From NCBI RefSeq assembly GCF_045037415.1, contig NZ_CP173438.1: a DNA stretch of 64,000 nucleotides. One strand, written 5' to 3'. How positions within the stretch are numbered: position 1 is the first letter of the stretch; the number at the start of each line of letters is the position of its first letter. Made by a program: the position numbers. Below are positions 54,101 to 57,100 of this stretch, piece by piece. The stretch is from Escherichia coli. Its GTDB lineage: Bacteria > Pseudomonadota > Gammaproteobacteria > Enterobacterales > Enterobacteriaceae.

Positions 54101-57100
54101 AAATACGGGTATTCGCGCCGATAACAACCTCACCGGCACTTTCATCAATAATCACCTGGTCTGCAATCTGAACATTTTTCTCTTTAGCATTAAGCTTCAG
54201 ATAGTTTTTCAGTTCCTGTGACAGAAGGTTGGGAATAAGCGGTTGACGCTTCCACCAGTGCGGAATAGCGGGTGGGTTTGTCGCGCTGAGGTTCGCGTCC
54301 AGTAAAAAAGGCAATAAGTCCATAAATAATCCAGATGGCATAAGCTAATAATACATACACAACGGAAAGCGGTGCTAAAGGCACCAACAACCAGCAACGA
54401 TGAAACCAGGCGCTAAATGCACCAATAACACAAACTACGCCGACCCAGATAAGCGGGAACATTGCCAACACCACACCATGTGGCCCGGTGGTGATGAATT
54501 CATTAAACCAGGTAGTGAGATAAATACCAACGCCATAAAGCACAACCAACAGCATAGGAAATATACTGAAGATACCGAAGCGGCTAAATAAAAGTCTTTT
54601 ATGCAGGCGCATACAGACCGCGTAGCCCACAATCCAACGCCGCCAGCGGCGCCACTCCTCACGCGGACTGTTACATTCCTGTGGGTATACGATGCAGCGA
54701 TTCGCCTGCCGAATACGGTAGCCGTTTGCCACCAACGTCCAGGTGAGATCAAGGTCTTCGACTTTAGTACGATCAGAGAAACCGAACTTACGCAATACAT
54801 CAGTACGGAACATCCCGCAGGCACCGCTGATAATAAACGGTGCACCGCCCAGAAACTGCTGTAGCGTGCGCTTCATAACAATCATCGGCAACTTTACGGT
54901 GGCGCGGATATGTGGCAGCAGACCTGCCCCTTTTAACGCGGTGGAGGGAATTCCGCCAACGGCATCAGCGCCGCGCTCAATTTCTGCCAGCATATAGCCC
55001 ATTCCATCATTATCAGGTGGAACGAAAGTATCTGCATCACTTAAAAATACTTGATCACACGTGGCGTATTTTAGTCCATGCATTAGTGCGCCACCTTTAC
55101 CGGTGTTTTTTTGCGTGACGGCAACAAAGCGGTCGCCCCATTTGCGTTTGACTTCCGCCATGACCGCTTCGGTATTGTCCGTGGATCCGTCGTTAACGCA
55201 AATTACCCGGCAAAAATAAGGGTTACGCAGCAGATTATCCAGTGACTGCGCCAGACACGGGCCTTCGTTATAAGCTGGTATAATGGCGTCAATACAGCCT
55301 TTCTTTTGACAGGGTTTACGTCTTAGCGTACTTAAAAACCATAGCAACATTGCTATGGTCATGAAGATAAATAACAAAGTTTTCATTTCTATTACTCCGT
55401 TACAACACCATCTTATGGACAACAAAACCTTCACACATAGAATGACTAACCTGTTGTCCTCGGAATTTGGCTTGAGCAATTATGTATTCTGGCTGTATGT
55501 ATCTTCGATGGATCTGGCTTTTATGCTTTTGTAATGCTAATATTTTTTTATTAAAATGGACCTCATCTACAGATTCAAAAACTTGAGGTAAAAATGACAG
55601 ACATGTACTTGGTGTTTCGTATCCTAGTATTTGAGGAATATAACGACAGGCAACCATTGATGCCTGATAAACAGCAATGTGATCCTGATGCCTGTCAGTA
55701 TTATTCATGGTGTAAACTCGAGTAATTTCCACATCCTGGGGCGTTTCATTCTCAATTATGTATTCCAGAGATGATATCATCTCTTTTATTTGCAAATATA
55801 ATCTGGTATCTTCAAAATTTAGAGGGATTAGTTTATTGCATCCTAACATATTTAATGCTTCTTGTGATTCCTTGTGACGATCAATATACTCTGCGCCACA
55901 GCAACCAGGTGTCATGACAACAGATATAATATATACTTTTTCATTAGAATAATATGAAAGAGATGCACCACATCCTAATTCTATATCATCAGGATGGGCA
56001 CCAATTGCTAAAATGCCGGTTCTTTTTCCCGAAGATGTTGTAGAATTCAACATGTAATCTATCCTTTTAGATATGCCATATGAATCCCCATCATAAATTA
56101 TCACTATCATAAAAATTAATCTTATTAAATATACTTTATATTTACTTTTTCAGAGGCAGAGAAGCATCATTTATGCAACAAGAAGATCTTCATTTCTGTT
56201 AAAAAAACAGAGTTTATATGCTATTACGGATTTCAGTCGTAGCAAGTTGAACTGTGATCGCATTAAGACTAATCTTCTGGCTTGTAAAGGCCTTAGTTCC
56301 GTCATGACTCTCCCATCAGGCCATAGTTGAGCAAAATCCTGAAAGAATTATCACCTATTGTATCTTCAGATACGGGAGTTTTTGTCCAGTATTGTTGGAA
56401 TAATCATGTGACTATATTGTTCTTGTAGTTGGAACGTCTTATAAATAAAACGAAAAGGCAGTAAGTTTGTTGTATTTATTGATATTTTTCATTCAGTTAG
56501 TTGGCAATAATCAGTTATGGTTGTATTCAAAAGTACAGCTAGAACGAAATTAAAATAACGGGAGCATCGTACATGACTTGATATTTCAGAGGGCTAAGTA
56601 TTAATATATTACTACGATCTGTCATCATTGACTATCAATATATTAGTTAGTTAAATATCTCTTTGTGTCATTCTGGCTAGTATATACTCATTATCATGAA
56701 TGCTGCCATGCATAGCTAGGTCATCACCAATTAATGATATTCTCTGGATAATGATTCAAGAGTTTAAGTTCATTGTATATATAAGTTTGTATTCAAAGGT
56801 AATAAATTCCTTGTTTATTATTTCTCATGAAAATAGTTAAGAAGGAGTGAAGAGTCTGTTTTTTTGGTAGGAGAGTCTTTATTTATGTGTTTGCTATTAA
56901 TGAATTTTTGTTAAGGTAGCCTCATTTGTCATAATTTTGCTAATATATGTATCGTCATATGTCGTGTTTTACTAAAAACTTAACTATCATGAACTCGTGA
57001 TAGTAACAATATACCCTTAAGGTAGAACTTTTTCTTGATGAGAAGGTTTAAGTTTGTAGTTCAGAATATTACTGCCAAGATAGTTTATACTAGGATATGT

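Follow-up and report, generated by a model that had tools for sequence, protein, structure and literature searches.

The 64,000-nucleotide stretch of Escherichia coli DNA analyzed here (contig NZ_CP173438.1 of assembly GCF_045037415.1, hereafter the window) contains a long non-coding gap, at 56054-57100 (no strand assigned) and with a guanine plus cytosine (GC) content of 31%, that separates two divergently transcribed sets of genes. On its left, on the minus strand, lies an operon whose first gene (55400-56053; 35% GC; c2486 in strain CFT073) encodes a yaiS-like “PIG-L family deacetylase” (Pfam PIG-L, 3.3e-22), together with genes for a yaiP-like glycosyltransferase, an acetyltransferase, and an outer-membrane protein of the YaiO family; together these genes duplicate, in diverged form (~70% nucleotide identity), the core yaiO-yaiX-yaiP-yaiS operon. 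On its right, on the plus strand, ibrA begins at 57101. The setting is a mosaic genomic island, rich in fragments of insertion sequences (IS), between the his/yee region and cobUST. Comparison of the gap with families of mobile elements and with the corresponding regions of other loci and strains indicates that it is very probably a composite non-coding spacer, in which AT-rich divergent promoter DNA has been lengthened by an old, wrecked IS630-type element.

The element in question is a decayed, ISEc40-like insertion sequence of the IS630 family at 56132-56779 (648 nt, plus strand), recognized by blastn, by tblastn, with a protein hidden Markov model (HMM), and with an nhmmer DNA profile. In blastn, 56163-56307 is 72% identical to loci annotated as “IS630 family transposase” in other E. 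coli, and tblastn also matches the relic on the plus strand. Full-length ISEc40-like transposases (341 residues) were gathered with the translated relic fragment, and 11 of them went into the protein HMM, which gives two colinear matches on this strand, residues 10-44 at 56205-56309 and residues 177-229, with in-frame stops, at 56507-56665. The DNA profile, made from four full elements (E. coli ISEc40, the M15-type element, and elements from Dickeya and Serratia), resolves the relic into four segments of the same orientation. The first, at 56146-56333 (45.8 bits, E 2.3e-16, or 9.6e-15 when the whole 64-kb window is scanned), spans the IS 5' leader and the N-terminal helix-turn-helix (HTH) region of the transposase (residues 10-44); the third, at 56505-56662 (12.7 bits, E 2.3e-6), corresponds to the DDE-domain region (residues 177-229) and carries in-frame stops; and the fourth, at 56700-56783 (4.8 bits, E 5.6e-4), comprises the transposase C terminus and the right IS terminus (...GTTCATTGTATA, then TA). 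The second segment, at 56347-56413 (-1.6 bits, E 0.046), is weak and colinear with the others; taken alone it is at the level of noise, its score being reached by one of 300 shuffles. As a control, the complete 64-kb window was scanned, and segments 1, 3, and 4 proved to be its three best DNA-profile matches; when the gap was shuffled 300 times with dinucleotides preserved, no shuffle scored as high as the 4.8 bits of the weakest of them. By these alignments, 56132-56779 holds remnants of both the HTH and the DDE_3 domains by which transposases of the IS630 family are recognized, in the state of a relic.

The same remnants escape general protein family models, a six-frame Pfam scan of the gap being empty at E <= 10. 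Because the relic is too decayed for such models, it was found only with a family-specific profile. Searches for closer relatives returned the same 72% fragment from a plasmid collection and nothing from a phage collection. Its nearest relative, found close to fadE/yafV in other E. coli (3019-3828 of the strain M15 locus), is likewise a pseudogene of the IS630 family and is truncated; a full-length, 341-residue version (97% identical protein) was found only in one short read-assembly contig.

The likeness to ISEc40 and related IS630 elements, which are ~1.1 kb long and encode a 341-residue HTH plus DDE_3 transposase, extends colinearly and in one orientation from the 5' leader to the right terminus. 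The TATAC.../...GTATA end motifs with their adjoining TA also correspond to those of the aligned family, the left one tentatively. Conserved ends in the IS630 family read TATACCC... on the left and ...TTGGGTA, then TA, on the right. The relic closes with ...CATTGTATA at 56779, followed by TA at 56780-56781, so that its right terminus, ...TTCATTGTATA then TA, can be aligned with ...TTTATTGGGTA then TA in the consensus. The left end may plausibly be placed at the TA followed by TAC at 56130-56134, which the alignment to the consensus sets off by a gap of 12 nt and which is uncertain by about +/-15 nt.

Differences from the family are those of an element long dead. Since 648 nt remain of the ~1,100 nt of an intact element, ~450 nt have been deleted, in at least three places. 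The ATG of the transposase consensus is AAG in the relic, leaving no start codon, and the sequence that follows is broken by frameshifts and by stops in every frame. Over 480 aligned nt the relic retains 70% identity to the family consensus, with 81 substitutions from GC to AT against 32 from AT to GC, and its GC content is ~33%, not the ~44% of the family element. It has neither the intact ORF (open reading frame) of ~341 residues nor the ~1.1-kb length of an active element, and it is inactive and unannotated. It is also single-copy and therefore not a family of miniature inverted-repeat transposable elements (MITEs); a repeat search of the gap returned short, low-identity chance pairs only, with no MITE-like or tandem structure.

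The composition of the gap as a whole is extreme for this DNA. GC content is 30.9% over 56111-57037 against 49.6% over the whole window, in which the lowest-GC stretch of 927 nt is 56061-56987 (30.6%; the runner-up elsewhere has 37.9%), and TpA steps are 2.3 times as frequent as in the window at large (11.7 and 5.0 per 100 nt). Windows of 200 nt with a GC content of ~41% or less run from ~55200 to 57199, the AT-rich patch thus continuing leftwards through the PIG-L gene. A scan for ORFs finds none of 60 residues or more in the gap, the longest having 46. The original prediction, made from the sequence of this region, of a very AT-rich stretch of ~0.9 kb with no convincing ORF is in these respects borne out.

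The borders of the gap require some revision. On the left, RefSeq/PGAP ends the PIG-L coding sequence at 56062, giving a protein of 220 residues with an ATA start codon. The best start is instead the ATG at 56053-56051, which has an AAGGA Shine-Dalgarno sequence (56066-56062) 8 nt upstream and aligns with the GTG start of the Citrobacter homologue; the ATG at 56110, which opens the longest PIG-L ORF, is without a ribosome-binding site. On the right, ibrA starts at the ATG at 57101, with AGGA (57092-57095) 5 nt upstream, and not at the TTG at 57035; homology to other ibrA loci begins at 57104-57145. With the start codons corrected on both sides, the true gap measures ~1,038-1,047 nt. The gap proposed originally is accordingly real, while its edges at 56110 and, on the ibrA side, at 57037 were drawn too narrowly for a region of ~1,040 nt.

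What remains when the relic is set aside is a gap of ordinary size. The left part is a leader of ~78 nt proximal to PIG-L (56054-56131, minus strand; GC 23.5% over 56063-56130), which contains the AAGGA site and is presumed to be the left half of the pre-insertion DNA. The right part, 321 nt proximal to ibrA (56780-57100, plus strand; 28% GC, or 28.7% over 56784-57100), is presumed to be the right half, with the promoter and 5' leader of ibrA. The sum of the two, ~400 nt, is of the same size class as the 412 nt upstream of the homologue in Citrobacter sp. FP75, the 615 nt of the K-12 yaiS-tauA gap, and the ~240-500 nt of 24-33% GC upstream of other ibrA loci; all of the comparable regions are AT-rich, at 24-35% GC. 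The length of ~0.9 kb had been put forward as a property of a regulatory region, a view that is not supported, about two thirds of the gap being decayed IS. It can be stated with high confidence that the gap owes its length to a dead element of the IS630 family, whose sequence is without function and is drifting towards A/T.

The distribution of the gap among strains and its variation bear on this interpretation. The stretch 56111-57037 is 100% identical to that of the E. coli O25b:H4-ST131 strain EC958, and the gap was found in 843 of 5,426 complete E. coli genomes, nearly always at >=99% identity, with CFT073, UTI89, 536, ATCC 25922, and Nissle-derived strains among the matches. The annotations inspected list nothing in it apart from modern IS, in the strains where one has inserted. 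Seven diverse B2 genomes with the island were aligned (the window, CFT073, ATCC 25922, AGR5151, A1.S1.65, SK1402, and O99:H6). The 648 nt of the relic show 7 single-nucleotide polymorphisms (SNPs) and 2 indels, or 10.8 SNPs/kb, and in the flanking genes ~1,148 synonymous sites hold 11 SNPs, or 9.6/kb. As its SNP density is near the synonymous rate of the flanking genes, the relic drifts at about the neutral rate. In the 321 nt proximal to ibrA there is a single SNP against ~3.3 expected, a difference that is not significant (Poisson P ~0.16). A further candidate for a divergent allele, that of strain HH45 (96.7% identity), was dropped because of frameshifts in every gene and a probable assembly error.

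Modern insertions have also entered the gap. In TUM13881, an IS1A with an 8-bp duplication of 56932-56939 lies within the promoter-like hexamers of ibrA; another IS1 is found in the gap of NR2550; SCU-116 has an IS3-family element at 56238-56242; and in SCU-313 an IS5 is joined at 56979, replacing all of the DNA leftwards, including the whole PIG-L/yaiO operon. The gap is thus a recurrent landing site of modern IS, and its gross disruption is tolerated in natural strains.

Binding of H-NS to the surrounding DNA can be read from the chromatin immunoprecipitation sequencing (ChIP-seq) of H-NS and StpA in CFT073 by Hustmyer et al. 2022 (PMC9765446), in which values are given per gene in Data set S1. 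CFT073 carries the same gap of 1,038 nt, and its c2486 PIG-L protein is identical (same accession as in EC958). The wild-type H-NS occupancy of c2486 (663 nt) is 0.654 (PMC9765446, Data set S1E), falling to 0.379 in the hns mutant and to 0.089 in hns stpA, and the gene is flagged as bound in all five strains (PMC9765446). Only 98 of 798 H-NS-bound genes remain bound in hns stpA, a persistence that the authors credit to occupation of the sites of highest affinity by the paralogue Hfp (PMC9765446); c2486 thus ranks with the genes most strongly bound by H-NS and StpA. Elsewhere in the island operon, wild-type occupancies are 0.110 for C_RS11785 (yaiP-like), 0.379 for c2489 (acetyltransferase), and 0.207 for c2490 (yaiO-like); beyond ibrAB, the TonB-dependent receptor gene c2482 is weakly bound at 0.137, and between c2482 and c2486 the CFT073 list of H-NS-bound genes has no entry for ibrA or ibrB (PMC9765446).

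The core paralogue of the operon in CFT073 shows ratios of immunoprecipitate to input for H-NS of 10.6 for yaiO, 35 for c0468, 8.4 for yaiP, and 32.5 for c0470, with tauA unbound (PMC9765446, Data set S1A); these four genes all belong to class III, defined as H-NS bound with low RNA polymerase, and yaiS of MG1655 stands at 25.0 (PMC9765446). Core and island operons have the same H-NS profile, with the PIG-L gene and the acyltransferase gene high, the glycosyltransferase gene low, and the divergent neighbour unbound. Because the core paralogue behaves alike, strong H-NS binding centered on the 5' end of yaiS-type operons is a trait of the family. The gap is contiguous with the maximum at c2486 and has the AT content and TpA frequency of an H-NS-silenced (xenogeneic) region. 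It is likely that the whole gap forms part of an H-NS/StpA filament silencing the PIG-L operon, and the earlier suggestion of H-NS silencing is to this extent supported by per-gene data, namely the occupancy of 0.654 at the flanking c2486 and the behavior of the core paralogue.

These properties invite a quite different explanation, that selection has maintained the entire 1 kb as a dedicated regulatory region with multiple sites for H-NS nucleation and for regulators, in which the length itself is functional. It would account for the AT- and TpA-richness of the gap and for the very strong binding of the flanking gene by H-NS, StpA, and Hfp, and it gains some force from the K-12 and CFT073 yaiS-tauA gap, which is likewise divergent, long (615 nt), and AT-rich (31% GC), lies upstream of a PIG-L/glycosyltransferase/acyltransferase/YaiO operon, and adjoins a PIG-L gene that is the local H-NS maximum next to an unbound divergent neighbour. 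There is no nucleotide similarity between the two gaps beyond AT-rich noise, no IS relic has been noted in the core region, and its partner is tauABCD, not ibrAB. Nor does the gap have alignable sequence, other than AT-rich noise, in common with the regions upstream of the Citrobacter sp. FP75 homologue or of K-12 yaiS, or any similarity to the DNA that precedes ibrA elsewhere. A dead transposable element can be recognized in two thirds of it, and this part varies near the synonymous rate and has indels among strains, and insertions of IS1, IS3-family, and IS5 elements and a deletion are tolerated in nature. A selected regulatory region spanning the whole 1 kb is therefore unlikely.

Other ibrAB loci (O157-type islands, LWY6, and JML285) have AT-rich DNA directly upstream of ibrA, as here. 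In these loci the upstream DNA is shorter and unrelated, and none is paired with a yaiS-like operon. A search for a motif or palindrome shared with other ibrA upstream regions found none. The ibrAB genes themselves are 76-96% identical to those of other loci, with the similarity starting at the ibrA start codon, and because homology between the loci starts there, ibrAB resemble a movable cassette that came to lie downstream of unrelated AT-rich DNA on several occasions. In two of three other loci (12089 and JML285), a PerC-family regulator lies 3' of ibrAB, and JML285 also has a YadA-family, Eib-like adhesin; neither is present here. An IbrAB island of ECOR-9 was reportedly described by Sandt et al. 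in 2002.

The 321 nt proximal to ibrA are the likely seat of its promoter. Two promoter-like sites on the plus strand are candidates from a promoter scan, one at 56908-56935 (TTGTTA-16-CATAAT with an extended -10 TG) and the other at 56926-56955. Downstream of these best promoter-like sites, ~97 nt 5' of the ibrA ATG, stands a perfect 9-bp hairpin or palindrome, ACTATCATG-AACT-CGTGATAGT (56983-57004, plus strand), which could be an operator or a leader hairpin; no run of U follows it, and it is not found upstream of other ibrA loci. Expression of c2484 (YbdM-like, the ibrB homologue) in the urine of 6 of 8 women with urinary tract infection (PMC2978726) is what would be expected if the ibrAB promoter were active and lay beyond the silenced DNA.

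The same stretch furnishes the arguments for a second alternative, that the gap encodes a small RNA (sRNA) or a cis-regulatory leader RNA for ibrA. RNA folding of the ibrA-proximal 317 nt is somewhat better than that of shuffled sequences on the sense strand (z = -2.05, with 3 of 100 shuffles as good), the hairpin at 56983-57004 is perfect, and this part has 1 SNP among seven genomes. The antisense strand, however, folds worse than shuffles (z = +0.75), the low SNP count is not significant, and none of the other ibrA loci compared has the ibrA-proximal sequence in its upstream DNA. An Rfam scan of 55000-58000 (E <= 10) has no match inside the gap, its two chance matches, of eukaryotic snoRNA type, falling in flanking genes, and there are no terminator-like sites, and so no intrinsic terminator, on either strand of the gap. 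The gap therefore lacks what would mark an sRNA (its own promoter and terminator, conservation, or membership in a known family), and an RNA gene or leader of this kind is very unlikely. The sRNA that the original prediction had entertained is not borne out by the Rfam and terminator scans, and promoter-like sites in the gap occur at chance frequency.

A third alternative is a small protein, for which ORFs of 33, 44, and 46 residues, comprising all of those of at least 30 residues in the gap, could be adduced. Each belongs to the relic. The ORF of 46 residues (56700-56840, plus strand) begins in the relic transposase C terminus, and that of 33 residues (56327-56428, plus strand) lies inside the relic within the weak second segment, so that both are shifted or residual transposase frames; the ORF of 44 residues (56171-56305, minus strand), also inside the relic, is antisense to the transposase HTH region. 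No Shine-Dalgarno sequence is seen upstream of any of the three, the Pfam scan is empty, and every ORF of at least 20 residues in the gap is either contained in the relic or extends from it, with none in 56841-57034. The ORFs do not qualify as a gene with its own ribosome-binding site and independent conservation, and that any of them encodes a small protein, as had also been suggested, is extremely unlikely.

Several observations weigh against the interpretation favored here, of AT-rich promoter DNA enlarged by a dead IS and covered by H-NS. The left IS end depends on a TATAC match and a 12-nt gap, and the TA on both sides of the relic is statistically uninformative in DNA of 31% GC. The stretches that separate the matched segments of the relic (56334-56346, 56414-56504, and 56663-56699) show no detectable homology. 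No empty-site allele was found among complete E. coli genomes, the insertion being deduced from homology. As the ChIP-seq tables are per gene, H-NS coverage of the gap itself is inferred from its flank, and the canonical high-affinity 10-mer of H-NS, TCGATAAATT, is not enriched, with 2 matches (<=2 mismatches) in ~1 kb against 1.06/kb for the window. Promoter-like sites in the gap number 8 against 7.6 +/- 3.0 in shuffles and, being no commoner than in shuffled sequence, are candidates rather than findings, a scan of this type saying little in DNA so rich in A and T; no transcription start sites are known in the gap, and a literature search for genome-wide maps of such sites in uropathogenic E. 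coli (UPEC) or ST131 yielded none of use. On the question of an empty site, ~840 genomes have this PIG-L allele and ~840 have the gap, as a comparison of totals, not genome by genome; a search of metagenomes for the exact pattern of joined flanks gave no match; and the nearest homologue among species representatives has only 62% protein identity.

On the reading of the gap as a composite spacer, its history may be reconstructed as follows. Some ~400 nt of AT-rich divergent promoter DNA would originally have lain between a yaiS-like surface-polysaccharide operon, with its YaiO porin, and ibrAB. An ISEc40-related IS630 element would then have inserted at a distance of ~80 nt from the PIG-L start codon, on the upstream side, in the orientation in which the transposase gene points towards ibrA. 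The element presumably died thereafter, losing its start codon, gaining stops and frameshifts, shedding ~450 nt by deletion, and declining in GC content from ~44% to ~33%, to become a near-neutral relic with probably no effect by itself beyond the addition of 650 nt of AT-rich DNA. At present, the PIG-L gene and the gap would most likely be coated by H-NS and StpA (and by Hfp in UPEC), keeping transcription of the PIG-L operon low, and ibrAB, at 50% GC, would stand outside the filament and be transcribed from a promoter in the adjoining 321 nt. It is plausible that the insertion displaced part of the native control region of the PIG-L operon and that ibrA is transcribed from its proximal 321 nt.

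A functional role acquired by the relic would modify this history. Under such a scheme, the relic would have been co-opted as a nucleation pad for H-NS, StpA, and Hfp and as a spacer, permitting very strong silencing of the yaiS-like operon and at the same time insulating the ibrAB promoter, or the hairpin in the ibrA leader would be the binding site of a regulator. This reading is improbable; if true, it would be an example of IS decay creating a silencing element.

Other features of the neighborhood complete the picture of the island. Downstream of ibrA (57101-58324, plus strand; PAPS_reduct and DUF3440, from Pfam and annotation) is ibrB (58309-58953, plus strand), which overlaps it and is assigned from annotation and a weak ParB_N match; the pair is followed by the convergent gene for the TonB-dependent receptor. 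A second very AT-rich patch, of 27% GC in a 200-nt window, lies at 61400-61600, at the 5' end of this receptor gene. The island operon bears signs of erosion in some strains: the PIG-L gene of O99:H6 CU42ET-1 is frameshifted by a 1-nt deletion at 55937; 6 of 15 SNPs in the operon are non-synonymous, above the expectation for a strongly constrained operon; and the acetyltransferase gene (53631-54341) has been annotated at two lengths, 525 or 594 nt. For the core operon, K-12 annotation includes a protein of 39 residues, YkiC, overlapping the yaiP-yaiS junction.

Nothing among the components is of a new kind: pseudogenes of the IS630 family, AT-rich divergent promoter regions bound by H-NS, and mosaic islands are all familiar. 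What is new is the identification of the unannotated relic and hence the re-reading of the gap. Beyond annotation the significance is small. The relic accounts for an unusually long unannotated gap in ~840 complete E. coli genomes, in which current RefSeq annotation misses a pseudogene, and it narrows the likely ibrA promoter to the adjoining 321 nt, while between the PIG-L operon and the relic just ~80 nt of the native upstream DNA are left. More broadly, the gap offers a small, clean case of a mobile element decaying towards A/T within DNA bound by H-NS, and a caution that the length of an intergenic region should not be equated with regulatory complexity.

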